A DNA stretch of 64,000 bases, taken from the NCBI GenBank assembly GCA_965248355.1, contig OZ252098.1, positions 3,328,001-3,392,000 on the forward strand. The letters run 5' to 3'. The number at the start of each line of letters is the position of its first letter. Within the stretch, counting starts at the first letter, position 1. Below the pieces are notes generated by a model. That model was given only the letters and a program-made list of their open reading frames with translations, searched no databases and was not told the DNA's origin. The stretch comes from Candidatus Latescibacterota bacterium. GTDB taxonomy: Bacteria > Latescibacterota > UBA2968 > UBA8231. Position numbers and translations under genes: made by a program. Positions 2,119 through 8,174 of the stretch are shown here, in pieces.

Positions 2119-2148
2119 TTGACATTGTGCCGGGATCCCGGATAGGTT
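2119..2148 (+). promoter_or_regulatory. sigma70-type promoter TTGACA-N18-TAGGTT
   Basis: Perfect -35 at 2119-2124 and TAnnnT -10 at 2143-2148 in the intergenic region after murD; direct repeat GCACTCATC x2 at 2164-2182 just downstream. Confidence 0.6.
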
Positions 2149-2214
2149 GACCCGCGTTCCACGGCACTCATCAGCACTCATCGACAAGCACCTGAAGGAG
2201 CTTCCAGAAGCCGG

Positions 2215-2466
2215 ATGATAGTCCGAATCCCACAAGACCTCCTGCGCCCGTCCAGGTCGACGGGCCGGCCCGCGTTTACCGGGACGACCGCCGCGGCCTC
2301 CGCCTCCGGCGACTTCCGGGGCGTATGGGGCCCGGCCGCAGGAGGGATGGGGTTCCACCGGCTCCACGGAAACGAATGCATCCCGATGACCGCCGCCGAC
2401 TCCATGAACGGCACGGTCATCAAGCCCCGTCCGGGGCTTGCAGCGGGAGGAGATCCCGGAGGTTGA
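2215..2466 (+). CDS. possible leader peptide (83 aa; alternative starts at 2347 and 2404)
   Basis: Only compact ORF between the promoter and terminator; GAAGGAG upstream; runs across the predicted switch segments and stops 60 nt before the terminator. No recognisable domain. Confidence 0.3.
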   Translation: MIVRIPQDLLRPSRSTGRPAFTGTTAAASASGDFRGVWGPAAGGMGFHRLHGNECIPMTAADSMNGTVIKPRPGLAAGGDPGG

Positions 2467-2573
2467 ATCGCTGAAGCGACAGCGACTCGAGCCGGAGGGA
2501 TCGGATCCCAACGGCTTACTCGAAGCCGGCTGCAGGCCCCCGCAAGGGGATCGCCTGCAGCCGGTTTTTTTTT
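2385..2573 (+). promoter_or_regulatory. candidate transcription attenuator or riboswitch expression platform
   Basis: 2421-2428 pairs with 2433-2440. Alternatively 2433-2444 pairs with terminator 5' arm 2529-2540 (12 bp, one G-U). The terminator is 2526-2537/2553-2564. Confidence 0.55.
2526..2573 (+). terminator. intrinsic (rho-independent) terminator
   Basis: Perfect 12-bp stem CCGGCTGCAGGC/GCCTGCAGCCGG capped by CCCC-GCAA-GGGG, followed by T9. Confidence 0.85.
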
Positions 2574-2786
2574 GTTGCACCAGGGCGCCGGGCCTCGCGA
2601 TCGGTACGGTACGCGAGGCTCGCGCCGGGAACCCCGTCGACGGACGTGGGTTCGAGGGATCGGCGGCGGTGGCCGAAGCAACGGGCCCACTCACCGCCCG
2701 CCGGTTCCCCCCGCCTGGCGGGTCAACGGCCGCTGGAACAGGAGGCCAGCGTCGTCCCGCCCGAACTCGCGAGAGGAAGGAGACCG

Positions 2787-2969
2787 ATGCACAAGGTCCC
2801 GAGAGAGTGGCTCGAGAGAGCCGCCCGGGTCTACAACAGCAACGCCGAAGCCAGCAAGGCACTGGGCATCGCGGGGGGCACCTTCGGTCGCCTCTGCCGC
2901 CAGTACGGTATCGAGACTCCCTTTGCCCGCCAGCGCAACGCCCGCAGGGCGGCGCGGTCCCGGGCCTAG
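2787..2969 (+). CDS. small (60 aa) Fis-type helix-turn-helix protein
   Basis: Strong RBS GAGGAAGGAG; MHKVPREWLERAARVYNSNAEASKALGIAGGTFGRLCRQYGI fits the Fis/HTH_8 pattern N-x-x-x-A-x-x-LGI-x-x-x-T-x-x-R; basic tail. Confidence 0.7.
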   Translation: MHKVPREWLERAARVYNSNAEASKALGIAGGTFGRLCRQYGIETPFARQRNARRAARSRA

Positions 2970-3127
2970 GGCAAGCACACGCCTCCGGCTGCGGCGGGAG
3001 AAGCCGGAGACGGCTGCCCCGGCAGCCACGGAATCCCTTTCACGGCGCCTGCCGGGCCGACGGCACCGGGCCGGCAGGCGCTGCTCCCGCACTCCCCCGT
3101 CCCCCGGCTGCGTACCTTTTCCGGACC

Positions 3128-5383
3128 ATGACGAGCCATCCTCCCCGTCTGATCGAGACCGCACCCCCCGGGGTCCAGGCCAGGATCCTGGCCGCCATGG
3201 GGGGCCAGGAAGCCCTCATACAGGTCCGGGCCGACATGGAGGCCGGGGGAAGGGACTACGGCCGGCGCTGGCTGGCCGCGTCCTCCGACCGCATCGTCGT
3301 CGCCGACGAGCCCTCGGCCAACGGCGCCCAGTCGATCCCCATGGCCGAGGTGACACGGGTGCGCACCGAGCCCCTCGTCGGCGGCGGGCGGCTCGAGATC
3401 GAGCGCCGTTCGGCCCCGACCGTGGCGATCGCCTACACCCAGTCCATGGGGGAGAAGTTCTCCGAGGCGGCCCGGGGGCTGGAGCAACTGCGCACCGGCG
3501 AGCCCTTCCTGGTCAATCCTCGCCTCGAGCGCCTGAGGTGCGAAAAGTGCTCGCGGCTGCTGCCGGAGCGGGACGGCGTCTGTCCCGCCTGTATCCGGAA
3601 GTGGTCCACCCTCAAGCGCATCGCCGGCTACATGTTCCCGTACCGGGGGAAGGCGGTGGTCCTGGCCATCGCCTCCCTGGTCACCGCGGGCGCCGAGCTG
3701 GTCCCGCCCCTGTTGATCATGCGTCTATGGGACGAGGTCCTGCTGCCGGCCATCAACGACGAGGACGGCGCCGCGGATCCGGAGTCCCTGCTGGGGCTGC
3801 TCGGCTTCCTGGTGCTGGCCATGGTGGGGGTCCGGGTGGTGAGCTGGGCCGCGGAATGGGTCCACGGATGGACCGCCGCCTGGCTCGGCGCCCGGGCGAC
3901 GGCCGACATCCGGGGCGAGCTCTACCGCCGGCTGGAGATGTTGTCGCTGCAGTTCTACGACCGGCGCAAGGTGGGGGCCCTCATGGCGCGGGTCACGCGC
4001 GACACGGGACGGCTCCAGGAGTTCCTCGTCGACGGGCTGCCCTACCTGATCGTCAACGCCCTCCTGATGGTCGGCATCCTGGGGTTCCTGTTCTGGATGA
4101 GCTGGGAGCTGACCCTCTACACGCTGATCCCGGTGCCTTTCATGGTCCTCTGGGGCGCCGTGTTCTGGAAGCGCATGCGCCGGTTCTTCCGGCGCTGGGG
4201 GGAGACCTGGTCGAACCTCACCGACCGCACCTCCGAAGCCCTGACCGGGATCCGCGTGGTCAAGGCCTTCGCCCAGGAGAGCCGCGAGATCGGCGCCTTC
4301 ACGCGCCTGAACCGCAAGATCACCCGGATCGGCGTGCGCACGAGCGTGAACCGCACCGTGTTCTTCGCCACCATCTCTCTCCTCACCAGCTTCGGCGTGG
4401 TCATCGTCTGGTTCTTCGGCGGACGGGAGGTGATCTCCGGCGAGCTGACCATGGGTACGCTGGTGGCCTTCTATTCCTACATCTGGATGGTCTACGGCCC
4501 GCTGGAGTGGTTCGGCCAGGTCAACTCCTGGATGTCGCGCGCCTTCGCCGGCGCCGATCGCGTCTTCGAGGTCATCGACACCGCCCCCGAGGCCTACGAC
4601 GACGCCGGGGCGGTGCGCATGCCGGAGATGGAGGGACGGATCCGGTTCACGGAGGTGACCTTCGGCTACGACAAGAGCAAGCCCGTCCTCAAGGGCATCG
4701 ATCTCGACGTGCGCCCCGGGGAGATGATCGGTCTCGTGGGGCGTTCCGGCGTCGGCAAGACGACGACGGTGAACCTCATCGCCCGGTTCTACGACGTCGA
4801 CCACGGCTCGATCGAGATCGACGGCGTCGACATCCGGCGCATCAACCTGCGCGACCTGCGCCGCCGGATCGGCATCGTCCTGCAGGAGCCGGTCCTGTTC
4901 TCGGGCACCATCGGCGAGAACATCGGCTATGGCAAGCCGGGGGCGAAGTTCGAGGAGATCCTGGCGGCGGCCAGGCTCGCCAACGCCCACAACTTCATCG
5001 TCGCCAAGCCCGACGGGTACGAGACCCAGGTGGGAGAGCAGGGCAACAACCTCTCCGGCGGCGAGCGCCAGCGGGTGGCCATCGCCCGGGCCATGCTGCA
5101 CGACCCGAAGATCCTGATCCTCGACGAGGCGACCTCGTCGGTGGACGTGGAGACGGAGAAGCAGATCCAGCAGGCCATCAACCGCATGGTGGAAGGCCGC
5201 ACGACCTTCGCCATCGCCCACCGGCTGTCGACCCTGAGGGACGCGGAGCGGCTCGTCGTCCTCGACGAGGGGCGGATCGTCGAGGTCGGCACCCACGAGG
5301 AGCTGATGAACCGGCGCGGCCGGTTCCACGACCTGGTGGAGATGCAGCAGGAAGCTTCCAGGATCATCGCGATCGCCGAGTGA
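3128..5383 (+). CDS. ABC exporter (TMD+NBD) with N-terminal extension and CxxC/CxxC zinc ribbon; DUF1854-associated family
   Basis: Walker A GRSGVGKT, LSGGERQR, ILDEATS; TM domain; CEKC..CPAC. Start placed at ATG 3128 by alignment with the paralog. Confidence 0.9.
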   Translation: MTSHPPRLIETAPPGVQARILAAMGGQEALIQVRADMEAGGRDYGRRWLAASSDRIVVADEPSANGAQSIPMAEVTRVRTEPLVGGGRLEIERRSAPTVAIAYTQSMGEKFSEAARGLEQLRTGEPFLVNPRLERLRCEKCSRLLPERDGVCPACIRKWSTLKRIAGYMFPYRGKAVVLAIASLVTAGAELVPPLLIMRLWDEVLLPAINDEDGAADPESLLGLLGFLVLAMVGVRVVSWAAEWVHGWTAAWLGARATADIRGELYRRLEMLSLQFYDRRKVGALMARVTRDTGRLQEFLVDGLPYLIVNALLMVGILGFLFWMSWELTLYTLIPVPFMVLWGAVFWKRMRRFFRRWGETWSNLTDRTSEALTGIRVVKAFAQESREIGAFTRLNRKITRIGVRTSVNRTVFFATISLLTSFGVVIVWFFGGREVISGELTMGTLVAFYSYIWMVYGPLEWFGQVNSWMSRAFAGADRVFEVIDTAPEAYDDAGAVRMPEMEGRIRFTEVTFGYDKSKPVLKGIDLDVRPGEMIGLVGRSGVGKTTTVNLIARFYDVDHGSIEIDGVDIRRINLRDLRRRIGIVLQEPVLFSGTIGENIGYGKPGAKFEEILAAARLANAHNFIVAKPDGYETQVGEQGNNLSGGERQRVAIARAMLHDPKILILDEATSSVDVETEKQIQQAINRMVEGRTTFAIAHRLSTLRDAERLVVLDEGRIVEVGTHEELMNRRGRFHDLVEMQQEASRIIAIAE

Positions 5384-7653
5384 CCGTGGAGAACGTGAAG
5401 ACGACGATGATGGAGGGAGACACGGGCGGACCCTCTCCCTTCCGGGAACCGGCGCCCGCCGCGGTGGACGAGCGCGTCCGCCTCGCCACCGGGAGGGGTG
5501 AGAGGATCTGGGTCCAGGTGGCCACGGACATGTCCGGTGGCGAGCTCTTCGAGGAGGGCTGGCTGGTGATCACCGACCGCCGGGTGCTCCTGGTGCATGG
5601 CAACGGCTCCGGACCCGCGGCGCCGGAGGTCGAGCAGGTGCCCCTCGGCGAGGTGCGCACGGCCCGCGTCGAGGCCCTGGTCGGCGGCGGGCGGCTGGAG
5701 GTGGAGCGCCGGGAGGGGCCGCCCGCCCACGTCTACTTCTCCAACTCCCTGGCCTCGAAGTTCGCCGAGGTCGCCGAAGGCCTCAAGCAGCTGGCCGAGG
5801 GGGAGACGCCGACCCTGGCCACCTCCGTCGACCGCACCCGCTGCGAGCGCTGCGGCCGGGTGCTGCCCGAGAAGGACGGCCTCTGTCCGGCCTGCGTGAA
5901 GAAGCTGGACACGATGAGGCGGCTGCTCCGCTACATGGCGCCCTACAAGGGGCGGGTGGCCCTGCTGTTGGCGATCCTCGTCCTCGAGACCGGGGTCGAT
6001 CTGCTGCCGCCCAAGATCACTCAGTACATCATCGACGACGTGCTCGTGCCGCAGGACAACTACGGCCTGCTGGTGCAGTACGCCCTGGCGCTGCTGGCCA
6101 TCAACCTCTTCGCCTGGGCCGCCTGGATCGTCCGCCGCTGGGTCGGCACCTGGGTCGGCTTCCGGGCCATCGAGGCGATGCGGGCCGACCTCTACCGGGC
6201 CCTGCAGTTCCTGCCCCTCCGGTTCTACGACAAGCGCAAGGTGGGGTCGCTGATCTCGCGCATGTCGAACGACTCCGACCTGGTGGAGATCTACCTGATC
6301 TTCGACATCCCCTACGTGGCCAACAACGCGCTGATGGTCCTCGGGATCCTCGGAATCCTGCTGTGGACCAGCTGGGAGCTGACCCTGTGGGTGATCCTGC
6401 CGATCCCGCCTATTCTGGCGGTCTCGACGGTGATCTGGAAACGCATGGAGTCGGACTGGCGGCGGTTCTCGGCCAAGTGGTCGCGCCTGTCGTCGCATCT
6501 GAACGAGTCGATCCGCGGCATCCGCGTGGTCAAGGCCTTCGCCCAGGAACGCCGCGAGGGAGAGCGCTTCGACCGCCGCAACACCGACCTGCGGGACGTG
6601 AGCATCACCGCCGAGCGCCGCTGGATCGTGTTCTGGATGATCACCAACTTCTTCATGAGTTCCGGCGTGTTCTTCGTCTGGTACTTCGGCGGACGCCAGG
6701 TGGTCTTCAAGGGGCTCTCCCCCGGCGAGCTGATGGCCTTCATCACCTACATATGGATGCTCTACCAGCCCCTCAAGTGGTTCGGAGACTTCTACGGTTT
6801 CATGATGCGCGCCTACGCCGGAGCCGAGCGCATCTTCGAGGTCGTCGACGCCAGACCCGAGCCCTTCGACGATCCCCGGGCCGAGCCGAGGCCGCACCTC
6901 GAAGGGCGCGTCCACCTGCGCGGCGCCACCTTCGGCTACGATCCCGGAAAGCCCGTGCTGCGCGAGGCCGACCTGGAGGTGGAGCCCGGCGAAATGATCG
7001 GCCTCGTGGGCAAGTCCGGCGCCGGCAAGTCGACCCTGATCCACCTCCTGTGCCGGTTCTACGACGTCACCCGGGGCCGCCTGGAGATCGACGGCGTCGA
7101 CATCCGCCGGCTGCGGCTGGAAGACCTGCGCTCCCAGATCGGACTGGTGGCCCAGCAGTCGTTCCTGTTCAACGGCACGGTGGCCGAGAACATCGCCTAC
7201 GGCAAGCCCGGGGCCTCCTTCGAGGAGGTCCTGCGCGCGGCGAGGGCCGCCAACGCCCACGAGTTCATCATCAAGCTGCCCGACGGCTACGACATGGAGG
7301 TGGGCGAGCAGGGCAACAAGCTCTCCGGCGGCGAGCGGCAGCGCATCGCCATCGCCCGGGCGATCCTGCACGACCCCAGGATCCTGATCCTCGACGAGGC
7401 GACCTCCTCCCTGGACACGCCCACGGAGAAGAAGATCCAGGAGGCGATCGCGCGGCTGGTGGAGGGACGCACCACCTTCGCCATCGCCCACCGGCTGTCG
7501 ACGCTGCGCTCCGCGGACCGGGTGGTCGTGCTCGACGCCGGACGCATCGTCGAGACCGGCACCCACGAGGAGCTGATGCAGCGCGAAGGCTACTTCCACA
7601 AGCTCGTGAAGATCCAGCAGGAGACCACGGCCGTCATGGCCGTGAGCGGATGA
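5380..7653 (+). CDS. second paralogous ABC exporter with zinc ribbon (probable heterodimer partner)
   Basis: GKSGAGKST, LSGGERQR, LDEATS; CERC..CPAC; GTGA overlap with the upstream stop. Confidence 0.9.
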   Translation: MTVENVKTTMMEGDTGGPSPFREPAPAAVDERVRLATGRGERIWVQVATDMSGGELFEEGWLVITDRRVLLVHGNGSGPAAPEVEQVPLGEVRTARVEALVGGGRLEVERREGPPAHVYFSNSLASKFAEVAEGLKQLAEGETPTLATSVDRTRCERCGRVLPEKDGLCPACVKKLDTMRRLLRYMAPYKGRVALLLAILVLETGVDLLPPKITQYIIDDVLVPQDNYGLLVQYALALLAINLFAWAAWIVRRWVGTWVGFRAIEAMRADLYRALQFLPLRFYDKRKVGSLISRMSNDSDLVEIYLIFDIPYVANNALMVLGILGILLWTSWELTLWVILPIPPILAVSTVIWKRMESDWRRFSAKWSRLSSHLNESIRGIRVVKAFAQERREGERFDRRNTDLRDVSITAERRWIVFWMITNFFMSSGVFFVWYFGGRQVVFKGLSPGELMAFITYIWMLYQPLKWFGDFYGFMMRAYAGAERIFEVVDARPEPFDDPRAEPRPHLEGRVHLRGATFGYDPGKPVLREADLEVEPGEMIGLVGKSGAGKSTLIHLLCRFYDVTRGRLEIDGVDIRRLRLEDLRSQIGLVAQQSFLFNGTVAENIAYGKPGASFEEVLRAARAANAHEFIIKLPDGYDMEVGEQGNKLSGGERQRIAIARAILHDPRILILDEATSSLDTPTEKKIQEAIARLVEGRTTFAIAHRLSTLRSADRVVVLDAGRIVETGTHEELMQREGYFHKLVKIQQETTAVMAVSG

Positions 7654-8174
7654 CGGCGAAGCCCCAGCCGGCGCCGATCAAGGTGACGCACCCGGAGCAG
7701 GTGGACATGGCCCGGGTGCGGCTGTTCCGGGAGCCACGGTGGATGCTGCGGCTGACCATCGACGGCGACCGGTCGTACACGCGCGTCAAGGTCGTGCGGG
7801 CGGCCCCCTTGTCCCATCCGCGCCGCTACATCTGCCTTCTCGACGAGAAGGACGAGGAGGTGTGCATGATCCCCGATCTCAAGGAGCTGGACGAAGGCAT
7901 GCGCGCCATCCTCGAGGAAGAACTCGACCGGCGCTACCTGACCTCCACGGTGCAGCGCGTGCTCTCCATGCGCAACGAGTTCGGCACCTCGTACTGGGAC
8001 GTGGAGACGAACCGGGGCCGGCGCGAGTTCGTCGTTCAGAACGCCGCCGAGAGCGCCCAGTGGCTGGGAGAGCACCGGCTCATGCTGGTCGACGTGGACG
8101 ACAATCGTTTCGAGATTCCCGACCTCCGCGGGCTCGACAAGAAGAGCCTGAGCCTGGCGGAGATGGTGCTGTGA
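7650..8174 (+). CDS. DUF1854-domain protein
   Basis: RAAPLSHPRRYICL, EEELDRRY, SYWDVETNRG and DVDDNRFEI match the DUF1854 pattern as I recall it; ATGA overlap with the ABC gene. Confidence 0.8.
   Translation: MTAKPQPAPIKVTHPEQVDMARVRLFREPRWMLRLTIDGDRSYTRVKVVRAAPLSHPRRYICLLDEKDEEVCMIPDLKELDEGMRAILEEELDRRYLTSTVQRVLSMRNEFGTSYWDVETNRGRREFVVQNAAESAQWLGEHRLMLVDVDDNRFEIPDLRGLDKKSLSLAEMVL

Follow-up and report, generated by a model that had tools for sequence, protein, structure and literature searches.

In the trpL leader of Escherichia coli, a translated frame overlaps competing RNA segments that pair as 1:2, 2:3 or 3:4 ahead of an intrinsic terminator; with the stop codon placed between segments 1 and 2, segment 2 is masked by a ribosome that has come to the stop, and without a ribosome the leader is super-attenuated. 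Termination in the E. coli pyrBI leader is decided by the distance between ribosome and polymerase, a form of coupling sensing in which tight coupling leads to read-through, the terminator hairpin being opened by the ribosome itself. The ermK leader of Bacillus combines a short leader peptide with two intrinsic terminators and a drug-specific stall, and macrolide-type arrest leaders (Erm/Msr) carry K/R-x-K/R at the stall site. SecM, MifM and VemP have long frames with export signals and a C-terminal arrest motif, and they act, as does TnaC, via Rho or unmasking of a ribosome-binding site and not through tandem intrinsic terminators. Regulatory nascent chains of this kind are treated in two publications (PMC8450073, PMC8429421). 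In Bacillus subtilis, the bmrB leader of bmrBCD is, according to portions of Reilman et al. 2014 (PMC4191407), a small upstream ORF co-transcribed with a heterodimeric ABC exporter; the same portions describe alternative stem-loops and an intrinsic terminator, a need for leader translation, a response to slowed protein synthesis and an effect of rare leader codons.

Here we describe a leader in a 64-kb window (the whole stretch of 64,000 nucleotides that was analysed) from a Latescibacterota bacterium. Its conserved promoter, long upstream frame and one or two terminators have the look of a switch that senses ribosomes, and they precede a small regulator gene and two ABC exporter genes. A sequence-only reading of this DNA had proposed a leader-ORF attenuator of the bmrB kind before the HTH and ABC genes, a proposal that comparison among relatives supports. 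The sequence features that it listed, including the T9 run at 2565-2573 and the ORF stop at 2466, all lie where it had placed them.

Layout and distribution of the leader

The features, numbered from the first letter of the window, are as follows.

2119..2148, + strand: promoter in a T-rich stretch, with -35 TTGACA (2119-2124), an 18-nt spacer starting TTGT and -10 TAGGTT (2143-2148)
2215..2466, + strand: leader ORF of 83 codons counted from the first in-frame ATG, ending with TGA at 2464-2466 and reading ..VIKPRPG..
2385..2421, + strand: hairpin predicted by folding, GATGACCG (2385-2392) / CGGTCATC (2414-2421), enclosing an internal ATG at 2386
2421..2428, + strand: segment 1, CAAGCCCC, pairing with the 5' half of segment 2; possible anti-antiterminator
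2433..2444, + strand: segment 2, GGGGCTTGCAGC (Gly-Leu-Ala-Ala), putative T2 antiterminator strand and copy of the T2 3' arm
2452..2464, + strand: putative T1 antiterminator strand in the RNAalifold consensus, GATCCCGGAGGTT (Asp-Pro-Gly-Gly plus the first stop base), copy of the T1 3' arm
2468..2485, + strand: post-stop hairpin, TCGCTG (2468-2473), loop, CAGCGA (2480-2485), directly 3' of the stop codon
2492..2514, + strand: T1 hairpin, CCGGAGGGAT / ATCCCAACGG, with two mismatches and its U-tract lost in the window genome
2526..2573, + strand: predicted T2 terminator, stem 2526-2564 followed by T9 at 2565-2573; 5' arm CCGGCTGCAGGC, 3' arm GCCTGCAGCCGG, inner CCCC/GGGG
2574..2786, + strand: spacer between T2 and the HTH-like gene, partly conserved within the genus
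2787..2969, + strand: HTH-like gene, 60 aa, first downstream gene, with a strong Shine-Dalgarno sequence GGAAGGAG
3128-5383 and ~5380-7653 (start not fixed), + strand: two ABC exporter genes (Pfam ABC_membrane, ABC_tran)
7650..8174 (start not fixed), + strand: DUF1854 protein (Pfam PF08909, E = 6e-41)

Comparison among relatives establishes the conserved parts of the element, its kept frame, its pairings and the gene order, which runs from promoter through reading frame, hairpins and terminators to the gene for the 60-aa HTH-like protein and the two ABC exporter genes. A covariance model matched the element in 27 of the 76 genomes of one Latescibacterota family and in none of 56 genomes from the three other families of the class; after inspection of the matches, the full element was retained in 22 genomes of uncultured bacteria from 9 genera of that one family. 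At least 21 loci, all among the loci listed, have the HTH gene 3' of T2 at a distance of 32-295 nt, with an ABC gene next. In the family's largest genus (24 HTH loci examined) the leader has diverged and has two terminators but neither the long frame nor the DPGG end, suggesting that the frame is dispensable to this operon in some lineages. A metagenome scan for GATCCCGGAGGTTRA recovered the element in one (L135) of 80 loci, the remaining matches being due to chance.

Rfam 15 assigned no family, with no match at the gathering score across the 64-kb window and four matches at E = 3-8.8, all far under the cut-offs. ARAGORN detected no tRNA or tmRNA in the window. A structured housekeeping RNA was rejected: RNase P and tmRNA sit elsewhere in the genome, the element is unlike 6S RNA and no 6S match was found anywhere in the genome. 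Folding energies divide the leader into a strongly structured 3' part (2385-2575, z = -7.48, 0 of 200 shuffles as good) and a weakly structured 5' part (2155-2384, z = -1.91, 9 of 200 shuffles as good). In the RNA 5' of the last ~190 nt, neither sequence nor length is conserved between genera, alignment fails and the loci span promoter-to-stop distances of 328 to 573 nt. The riboswitch that the sequence-only reading had entertained thus lacks a candidate aptamer, the 5' RNA being both unconserved and weakly structured.

Transcription is predicted to start near 2155. The promoter layout is kept in 19 of 19 relatives inspected, and it is this conservation on which we base the promoter call, as a simple consensus scan returned no promoters and missed that of the leader. 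The same scan reported a single terminator-like site, elsewhere and on the minus strand, and missed T2; terminators were called from folds and pair counts instead. Between the frame and the genes, an intrinsic terminator is predicted at T2 in the window and at both T1 and T2 in most relatives. Contigs from RNA libraries of two studies lie over the leader, and X1 record 3 (2489-3033) and X2 record 6 (2503-2667) run across T2 into the HTH gene; transcript ends are not readable from such contigs, and RNA libraries may hold DNA. None of the contigs lies on 1900-2191, 5' of the predicted start, where missing cover carries no weight. Contig ends at 2558 and 2573 are possibly assembly breaks at the T-run.

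The gap between T2 and the HTH gene is 216-295 nt in the window's genus and 32-134 nt in other genera. Within 2574..2786, no promoter was recognised by the scan that had also missed the leader promoter. The HTH-like protein shows 53-95% identity across the family, has only weak, sub-cut-off matches in Pfam (HTH_50 and RWP-RK) and falls in a cluster of 10 whose sole named member is a 'hypothetical protein'. Both ABC exporters carry an N-terminal extension of ~200 aa. The best NCBIfam model for their genes is 'cyanophycin metabolism-associated ABC transporter', at 633 and 616 bits against a cut-off of 880, and the DUF1854 protein scores 93 against a cut-off of 150 with 'cyanophycin metabolism-associated DUF1854'. 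As these models (NF052233 / NF052234) score best yet below cut-off, we regard the ABC and DUF1854 genes as relatives, not members, of the families they describe. Such exporters are proposed to move an amino-acid polymer in a section of Price et al. (bioRxiv 10.1101/072470).

The leader frame and its terminator-pairing end

The leader frame is open for 63-173 codons in all full-length relatives, and the other two frames mostly for 0-58 codons (relatives with 45-64% GC). Its stop occupies a single aligned position in the 22 full-length loci (TGA in 19, TAA in 2 and TAG in 1) and is also TGA in the partial locus L045. Gaps in alignable pairs are multiples of three (3,3,3 / 3 / 3,15 / 6,3 / 3,3,60); three pairs at 55-64% identity have gaps that are not, for which alignment noise or compensating frameshifts are possible. 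Substitutions are spread evenly over the three codon positions (12/18/13, 29/26/30 and 37/30/41), suggesting that the frame matters and that most of the peptide does not. GC3 of the leader frame is 0.77, compared with 0.91-0.95 in neighbouring genes. Taken alone, the open frame of the window genome (68% GC) is unremarkable (P(open | shuffle) = 0.41), and another frame is open for 89 codons. A per-locus shuffle test of openness gave P = 0.04-0.48 with analyst-chosen start codons, a bias that led us to use no combined probability.

The Shine-Dalgarno sequence before the first ATG is unconvincing (AAGGAG, 13 nt upstream in the window, with nothing comparable before the first ATG in L027-L029), and an internal in-frame ATG at 2386 would yield 26 aa. 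Two short contigs carry a gene-caller prediction of the 83-aa product. The frame has no Pfam family, and none of the 21 frames compared contains a hydrophobic or export-signal segment (maximum 19-residue hydropathy <1.6). A RiPP precursor or secreted peptide was set aside: the leader part is unconserved, the ABC proteins have no Pfam peptidase domain and the C-terminal conservation is accounted for by RNA pairing. The sequence-only reading had also pointed to a macrolide-type K/R-x-K/R motif, which comparison does not support. KPR is found at the aligned position in 5 of 21 species, namely the window and its four nearest relatives, and is replaced elsewhere by KPH, KHN, KFE and others; 8 of 21 species have a +x+ somewhere among their last 22 residues, at varying places.

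The last 10 codons are conserved at the nucleotide level and are copies of the 3' arms of both downstream terminators. The stretch CCTGCAGC (Pro-Ala-Ala), present in the window genome as CTTGCAGC, pairs with the T2 5' arm, and in the window segment 2 forms 12 pairs, one of them U-G, with GCTGCAGGCCCC (2529-2540). In the window genome, the predicted energy of the duplex that the ORF end forms with the T2 5' arm is -27.7 kcal/mol, a value reached by 0.2% of 500 shuffles and by 2% of 97 other 45-nt windows. Across 18 loci the T2 duplex energies range from -12.6 to -30.3 kcal/mol; the observed energy is reached by at most 3.4% of shuffles in 17 of the 18, and in all of them no more than 5.2% of the other windows from that locus reach it. 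The 2:3 pairing proposed from the window alone is thus conserved among relatives, with seven core pairs kept in 17-18 of 18 sequences, one compensatory change (U-A to C-G) and several G-U changes. In L036, segment 2 and both T2 arms have changed together (CCCGCAGC / GCTGCGGG / CCGCAGCC), and L049 keeps 8 pairs with different letters (CAGCTTGG / CCAAGCTG).

Taken as a whole, the antiterminated structure has 89% of its cells paired, compared with 30-45% when the partners are slid by 1-3 columns, and the covariation score is 0.268 (0.04-0.105 when slid; 0 of 500 shuffles reach 0.268), values that are inflated because the aligned sequences are kin and the alignment was fitted to the model. Codons at the conserved end are rare for a 68% GC genome (GCA 9%, GGA 13%, GAT 12% and GGT 8% of their families), which points to constraint on the nucleotides and not on the peptide.

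In addition to T2, the comparison revealed a second terminator, T1, that the sequence-only reading had missed and whose U-tract is lost in the window genome. In 14 of 18 aligned relatives, T1 has a perfect stem followed by six or more T; 94.4% of its cells are paired and 5 pairs show compensatory changes. In all 16 loci compared, 24-34 nt separate the stop from T1. GATCCC..GGTT (Asp-Pro..Gly) can pair with the T1 5' arm, and helices 2 and 3 of the T1 antiterminator are 92.6% and 91.3% paired. When truncated transcripts are folded, 13 of 16 loci pair the inner 5' arm of T1 with the last 8 codons at P >= 0.6, the test failing in L038, L039 and L042; with a ribosome on the stop, P is 0. The shuffle-control fraction is <=0.09 in those 13 loci. 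Tested as a duplex only, the T1 antiterminator did no better than shuffles (fractions of 0.006-0.46 and 0.012-0.59). The T1 antiterminator appears less well supported than that of T2.

The remaining hairpins differ in how far they are conserved. T2, which is supported by folds, has 91.1% of cells paired and 6 pairs with compensatory changes; the post-stop hairpin has compensatory changes at all 6 pairs and 86% of cells paired across 18 sequences. GATCCC (2452-2457) and GGGATC (2497-2502), which enclose this TCGCTG/CAGCGA hairpin, had been taken for a fold bringing segments 2 and 3 together; this stem appears to be the antiterminator of T1 and not a spacer fold alone, a role that the sequence-only reading had missed. 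The proposed 1:2 hairpin is predicted by folding in the window; with 72% of cells paired across 18 sequences, it is mainly a feature of the window's genus. RNAalifold retained the hairpin at 2385..2421 in 9 close relatives, with some compensatory changes, at the level of the genus only.

Folding of nascent RNA agrees with the antiterminator predicted for T2. In 14 of 16 loci, transcripts that end before the T2 3' arm have the T2 5' arm paired with the end of the ORF (P = 0.59-1.0). Placing a ribosome with its P-site at codons -12 to -3 brings this probability to ~0 in most loci (L036 stays at 0.4-0.7), and pairing returns with the P-site at -1 and 0. In full-length RNA at equilibrium, the terminators form at any ribosome position in most loci, which implies that the switch must be kinetic. 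Equilibrium folding under a ribosome mask is uninformative for a kinetic switch, and truncated-transcript folding was used in its place.

Proposed mechanism and rival explanations

These comparisons make it probable, in our view, that the leader is a ribosome-mediated transcription attenuator gating an operon for the HTH-like protein, two ABC exporters and the DUF1854 protein. A sigma-70-type promoter would start the leader RNA near 2155, almost all of it one frame (2215-2466) in which amino acids may drift but openness and stop position stay fixed. The last ten codons would double as two antiterminator strands, for T2 and T1, and the post-stop hairpin would draw the GATCCC..GGTT strand and the T1 5' arm together. 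If the leading ribosome stood at the last ~12 codons or the stop when polymerase made T1 and T2, it would cover these strands, the terminator hairpins would form and transcription would end in a ~420-nt leader RNA. With the ribosome lagging or absent, both antiterminators would form first and polymerase would read into the operon, so that the long, sequence-free frame would act as a runway converting slowed translation into read-through. In the window genome, where T1 has lost its U-tract, the decision would rest on T2, with the genus-specific 1:2 hairpin possibly helping. We infer, rather than observe, translation of the frame, termination, the direction of the switch and its signal.

As to what is sensed, we tentatively suggest, at somewhat less than an even chance, that the element is a general sensor of translation-transcription coupling, with slowed or absent leader translation switching the exporter operon on. 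Inducers could then include a lack of amino acids or of ribosomes and, in the sponge holobiont, compounds that target the ribosome, and a ribosome-free leader would read through, the opposite of trp-type super-attenuation. If true, coupling sensing would explain a leader frame that is long and sequence-free yet strictly open, and would offer a portable part reporting translation speed.

The same attenuator might instead sense its own nascent chain, the conserved C-terminal peptide P-A-A-[G/W]-x-[D/S]-[P/S]-G-G-stop serving as an arrest sequence that stalls near or at the stop on a specific small molecule or pulling force, as in TnaC/SecM. This is unlikely in our judgement, even though the last nine residues and the stop position are kept across 9 genera while the remaining peptide drifts, and synonymous changes occur among them (GGA to GGC twice, GGT to GGA or GGC, CCC to CCT). 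The penultimate GGA is likewise kept in 18 of 23 loci despite lying in an unpaired internal loop, and segment 2 is predicted to be freed exactly when the ribosome reaches the stop, such that a stall 1-3 codons earlier would flip the outcome. However, the residues that are kept are those encoded by the nucleotides pairing with the terminator arms, and positions -5 and -4 between them vary freely. Retention of rare codons in a high-GC genome argues for nucleotide constraint, several lineages carry non-synonymous changes (D to S/N, P to S, G to K/I/T) and a hydrophobic export-signal segment is seen in 0 of 21 frames. The type of stop codon also varies, which speaks against a release-factor-specific mechanism.

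Other readings would do away with ribosome sensing. It is improbable that promoter, frame and tandem terminators make up a small-protein gene in its own right, with the HTH and ABC genes expressed from a separate promoter and the complementarity of ORF end and terminator incidental. Although the layout, with its promoter, a frame open for 60-157 codons and one or two strong terminators, is that of a complete gene, the gene caller did report the 83-aa product on 2 short contigs and the 216-295 nt between T2 and the HTH gene in the window's genus leave room for a promoter, that gap narrows to 32-34 nt in one genus and to 46-88 nt in another six loci. Even substitutions over codon positions, GC3 far under that of real genes and the lack of a Pfam family also count against such a gene, as do complementarity far above chance and covarying, RNA-library contigs that bridge T2 and the failure to find a promoter-like site after T2 (with a scan that also missed the leader promoter). 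Somewhat less credible still is a metabolite-binding riboswitch or trans-acting small RNA to which the frame is irrelevant. The strong 3' structure (z = -7.48) and the discrete ~420-nt RNA that a terminated leader would release fit this idea, and in other bacteria an attenuator RNA, once liberated, can act in trans (PMC6614838). An RNA-only element, however, leaves the kept frame, the in-frame indels and the fixed stop unexplained; it finds no Rfam match, and the 5' 230 nt are weakly structured, unalignable between genera and variable in length. Finally, we give hardly any credence to the three CTGCAG copies, in segment 2 and both T2 arms, as operators for a DNA-binding protein such as the adjacent HTH. 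The motif is palindromic and occurs three times, all three copies in L036 have changed to the same variant site and a very conserved small HTH-like protein is encoded next door, but the copies differ in L027, L034 and L043, where RNA G-U pairs are kept and the identity of the DNA sites is broken. L049, moreover, keeps complementarity with quite different letters, and the copies lie 300-450 nt 3' of the promoter.

Comparison with known systems

We found no description of the element in Rfam or in full-text literature searches on DUF1854 ABC transporters, leader or arrest-peptide attenuation, bmrB or Latescibacterota in sponges, and it may therefore be the first cis-regulatory element proposed for this uncultured phylum. 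The attenuator reading would tie a DUF1854-type ABC exporter to translation stress; were it wrong, what remains is a well-conserved leader worth an Rfam entry.

The element shares with bmrB an upstream ORF, predicted alternative stem-loops, a predicted intrinsic terminator and ABC exporter genes, and the end of the Latescibacterota frame is also rich in rare codons. It differs in phylum and has no sequence similarity to bmrB. The bmrB terminator is situated within its ORF, whereas in our loci the ORF stop precedes the first of two tandem terminators by 24-34 nt; the frame here has 60-157 codons and a drifting sequence, and an HTH-like gene is placed between leader and exporters. With TnaC, SecM, MifM and VemP the leader has in common a C-terminus conserved beside the stop or arrest point and a variable upstream part, and with the last three a long frame. 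Unlike SecM, MifM and VemP, it has no hydrophobic segment (21 of 21 frames), its conserved residues are explained by RNA pairing and control would act via terminators, the strong Shine-Dalgarno sequence of the next gene being free and 216 nt away.

The logic of competing segments, the overlap with a leader frame and the intrinsic terminator are those of trpL. Unlike in trpL, however, segment 2 lies 19-22 nt ahead of the stop and is predicted to be unmasked when the ribosome stands there; no amino acid is encoded by a run of tandem codons, segment 1 is unconserved beyond the genus and a ribosome-free nascent transcript is predicted to form the antiterminator. Coupling sensing would be shared with pyrBI, whose sign is opposite to that of our model. 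A leader frame followed by two terminators recalls ermK, in which the peptide is short and the stall drug-specific. Neither pyrBI nor ermK has antiterminator strands that copy terminator 3' arms inside the last ten codons. The design proposed here is compact: two tandem terminators, with each antiterminator written into the coding end of an otherwise unconstrained leader frame.

The leader locus and its neighbouring genes

The element occupies a 718-nt gap between murD and a gene for an HTH-like protein, and every sequence element named by the sequence-only reading was found where that reading had placed it.

Features of the locus (window coordinates)
704-2068, murD (TIGR01087, 341 bits, above cut-off)
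2119-2148, leader promoter
2215-2466, leader reading frame, 83 codons
2421-2428, segment 1
2433-2444, segment 2, able to pair with segment 1 (1:2 hairpin) or the T2 5' arm at 2529-2540 (2:3 pairing)
2492-2514, T1, hairpin
2526-2573, T2, terminator
2787-2969, HTH-like gene, 60 aa
3128-5383, ABC exporter gene 1 (Pfam ABC_membrane and ABC_tran)
about 5380-7653, ABC exporter gene 2 (Pfam ABC_membrane and ABC_tran)
ending at 8174, DUF1854 gene (Pfam)
3' of the DUF1854 gene, RraA-like gene

The layout of the leader promoter (a T-rich stretch, TTGACA, TTGT, an 18-nt spacer and a TAnnTT-like -10 box) was conserved in 19 of 19 loci. A simple consensus scan flagged neither this promoter nor the terminator, and the same scan, having missed the leader promoter, found no promoter-like site 3' of T2. 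Among the 21 loci listed, the HTH gene starts 32-295 nt 3' of T2 (the window has 216 nt, L040 and L041 have 32-34 nt, and another six loci have 46-88 nt). RNA-library contigs from two studies (X1 and X2), 95-99% identical to the window, cover 2192-2558 and extend across T2 into the HTH gene (2489-3033 in X1, 2503-2667 in X2), with the caveats that contigs reveal neither transcript ends nor strand and that DNA may be present in such libraries. Between T2 and the HTH gene lies a spacer (2574-2786) whose length of 216-295 nt is confined to the window's genus. It contains genus-conserved blocks, for example CGGTACGG, CCCACTCAC and GGAACAGGAGGCCAGCGTCGTCCCGCC, and may include an additional regulatory element or another promoter. 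Near-identical sequence was also present in runs labelled sponge metagenome.

The top NCBIfam model for both exporters was a cyanophycin metabolism-associated ABC transporter, and the DUF1854 gene matched the DUF1854 partner model of the same set, in each case with a score below the cut-off. Mutant fitness data led Price et al. (bioRxiv 10.1101/072470) to propose that a DUF1854 protein and an ABC protein of this type together export an amino-acid polymer. Each exporter has an N-terminal extension of ~200 aa without a Pfam match (3128-3760 and about 5380-5960), with a CxxC..CxxC pair directly before the first membrane segment; the cyanophycin-associated ABC model also spans this extension (protein positions 30-743). 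Across the family the HTH-like protein shows 53-95% identity. Nearly confined to Latescibacterota-titled records or Gemmatimonadetes-labelled MAGs, it occurs among loci L056-L127 as several paralogues per genome, with as many as 5 loci on a single chromosome record; many of these paralogues have a different gene context that lacks the leader.

Folding and spread of the element

The whole leader (2155-2580) folded with z = -6.16, and its opposite strand scored the same (z = -6.13), as expected for hairpins. The signal was located in the 3' 190 nt (z = -7.48, none of 200 shuffles as good); the 5' 230 nt gave z = -1.91, with 9 of 200 shuffles as good. An Rfam scan of the 64-kb window returned no match at gathering score and four noise matches at E = 3-8.8, so no known family was assigned, and the proposal of a riboswitch was unsupported by every test run. 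ARAGORN found no tRNA or tmRNA in the window. A housekeeping RNA was also considered and rejected, as RNase P RNA and tmRNA are located elsewhere in the genome. The Rfam 6S RNA model had no match in the whole 5.5-Mb single-contig genome (G000), a model that matched just 5 of 14 control genomes.

A BLAST search with 2100-2600 as query had matches in 11 of the 41 related genomes. Four relatives were 80% identical across the entire element, more distant ones retained positions 2382-2537 only, and the gene order murD, element, HTH, ABC was conserved, in some cases with an additional gene between murD and the promoter. In the more distant relatives L006-L008 and L010, a gene of ~800 nt that is missing in the window lies there on the opposite strand, ending near the promoter's T-rich stretch. 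Two covariance models built on the last ~157 positions, R1 (9 sequences) and R2 (18 sequences), matched 25 and 27, respectively, of the 76 genomes of the family, which here comprises the whole order; R2 matched none of the 56 genomes from the class's other three families (0/3, 0/22 and 0/31).

On inspection, the full element was present in 22 genomes of 9 genera (L022-L043, with L026 from the window genome). L049 and L050 are diverged forms, L045/L052 lacks T2, and L051 carries an in-frame stop, its operon being broken. Near the leaders of L027, L030, L038, L045 and L051, the first ABC gene was found as C-terminal fragments only, which suggests deletion or decay of the operon. L044 and L046 were rejected as false positives, each a tRNA followed by a terminator. 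L054, a second copy in one genome (G019), has T1 only and lies directly 5' of an ABC gene. This paralogous short leader (about 1370-1660 of that locus) ends ..MVSMWKNSSA-stop and has the T1 stem GGGAATTTTCCC, with GAAAAATTCC complementary to the T1 5' arm; the exporter gene downstream is 60% identical to the window's, and the HTH gene is absent.

At the 24 loci examined in the family's largest genus, a diverged two-terminator leader that lacks the long frame lies 5' of this HTH gene, so the design has undergone at least one remodelling. These leaders (within L079-L111, about 1180-1500 of each) read GCCGCTTTCCAGCGGC-T6, then GCYGCGGC..GCTGCGGC-T7, and score only 16-22 bits with R2. They lack the DPGG end, and a long reading frame is not consistently present; most carry a 41-codon frame through T1, ending ..D[T/P]AAFQRLF-stop.

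The leader frame and the pairing of its end

The frame that runs into the conserved stop has 63-173 open codons in all full-length loci, extending nearly back to the promoter; in relatives with 45-64% GC the other two frames are mostly open for 0-58 codons. As a second frame is also long (89-111 codons) in the window's genus (67-70% GC), and the probability of the window frame being open given shuffling is 0.41, the window alone is no proof of a kept frame. The stop falls at a single aligned position (of the 22 full-length loci, 19 have TGA, 2 have TAA and 1 has TAG; the partial locus L045 has TGA). Gaps in well-aligned pairs are all multiples of three (3,3,3; 3; 3,15; 6,3; 3,3,60); those in three pairs at 55-64% identity are not. 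Substitutions are spread evenly over codon positions 1, 2 and 3 (with counts such as 12/18/13, 29/26/30 and 37/30/41). Third-position GC is 0.77; the four neighbouring genes, when read in frame, have values of 0.91-0.95. The leader frame has no Pfam family, no hydrophobic segment was found in any of the frames examined, and a gene caller reported the 83-aa product on 2 short contigs only. The macrolide-type K-x-R motif that had been suggested is not conserved (5 of 21 species). Our reading of these sequence patterns is that ribosomes would have to be able to traverse the entire leader and end at a set position, with the product largely irrelevant.

The last 12 codons read ..P-A-A-[G/W/R/T]-x-[D/S/N]-[P/S]-[G/T/K/I]-G-stop, and their conserved residues coincide with nucleotides able to pair downstream; residues between the paired blocks vary. 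CCTGCAGC (P-A-A; CTTGCAGC in the window) is complementary to the T2 5' arm, GCTGCAGG. GATCCC (D-P) pairs with GGGATC and GGTT (the last Gly and the stop T) with AACC/AGCC, jointly spanning the T1 5' arm, and a hairpin starting 1-5 nt 3' of the stop separates the two strands of this T1 antiterminator. Both antiterminator strands in effect copy the 3' arms of the terminators. The conserved codons are rare in the window genome (GCA 9%, GGA 13%, GAT 12% and GGT 8% of their families), which favours a nucleotide constraint over a peptide constraint; a weak point is that the penultimate GGA is conserved though unpaired.

The 2:3 pairing proposed from the window proved to be conserved. Its duplex energies range from -12.6 to -30.3 kcal/mol. 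In 17 of 18 loci no more than 3.4% of 500 dinucleotide shuffles matched the observed energy, with L043 the exception at 9.6%, and in 18 of 18 no more than 5.2% of 97 other same-locus windows did. In an alignment of 18 related sequences fitted to the model of the other, terminated state, 89.0% of cells were paired in the antiterminated structure, compared with 30-45% when partners were slid 1-3 columns, and the covariation score was 0.268 (0.041-0.105 slid; reached by none of 500 shuffles). The relatedness of the sequences and the fit of the alignment to that model weaken these counts. All six pairs of the post-stop hairpin show compensatory changes. Segment 2 and both T2 arms are altered jointly in L036; differences in L027, L034 and L043 preserve G-U pairs; L049 retains 8 pairs with different letters (CAGCTTGG / CCAAGCTG); and T1 in L038 and L054 has GAAAATTCC opposite GGGAATTTTCC, replacing GATCCC / GGGATC. 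A duplex-only test of the T1 antiterminator was not above shuffles.

In the terminated state, 94.4% of cells were paired in T1, 91.1% in T2 and 86.0% in the post-stop hairpin. The 1:2 hairpin (72.4%) held up within the window's genus and not as a family-wide feature. T1 is followed by at least 6 T in 14 of 18 aligned sequences; in the window genome and its nearest relatives it has mismatches and no U-tract.

Predicted ribosome dependence and relation to the bmrB leader

When the ribosome was modelled as a masked 28-nt footprint on the complete leader at equilibrium, the terminators formed almost irrespective of its position, and any switch must therefore be kinetic. We also folded truncated transcripts in which a terminator 5' arm had emerged and its 3' arm had not, numbering the last sense codon 0. 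With no ribosome, the T2 5' arm paired with the frame end at P = 0.59-1.0 in 14 of 16 loci (0.02 in L031, 0.08 in L042). With the P-site at codons -12 to -3 this fell to ~0 in most loci (0.4-0.7 in L036), returning to 0.4-1.0 in most at codons -1 and 0. For the inner T1 5' arm, 13 of 16 loci gave P ≥ 0.6 for pairing with the last eight codons, and P was 0 once a ribosome sat on the stop. When these 27 nt were shuffled, mean P was 0.03-0.36, and in those 13 loci no more than 9% of shuffles attained the observed value; L038, L039 and L042 failed this test. The stop-to-T1 distance is 24-34 nt in all 16 loci.

These foldings suggest that a ribosome positioned within the final ~8 codons or on the stop would arm T1, and that one on codons -12 to -3 would arm T2. 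Given such arming positions, a leading ribosome that reached the frame end in time would cause termination, and both antiterminators would form if it lagged by more than ~13 codons or never loaded. A long, sequence-free frame could in this way integrate any slowing of translation. In the window genome, where T2 is the only full terminator, segment 2 should, by these predictions, stay unmasked when a ribosome sits on the stop. Comparative evidence for the parts of the element is strong; we infer a probable mechanism and a tentative direction of the switch from modelling.

The sequence-only reading had likened the element to the bmrB leader of Bacillus subtilis bmrCD. That leader has a translated small ORF, three alternative stem-loops and an intrinsic terminator, and is induced by antibiotics targeting protein synthesis (PMC4191407). 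It is the closest studied system, and our element probably works like that family. Unlike bmrB, the element has tandem terminators 3' of the stop, both antiterminator strands within the last ten codons, a long frame of unconstrained sequence and a predicted read-through state without a ribosome.
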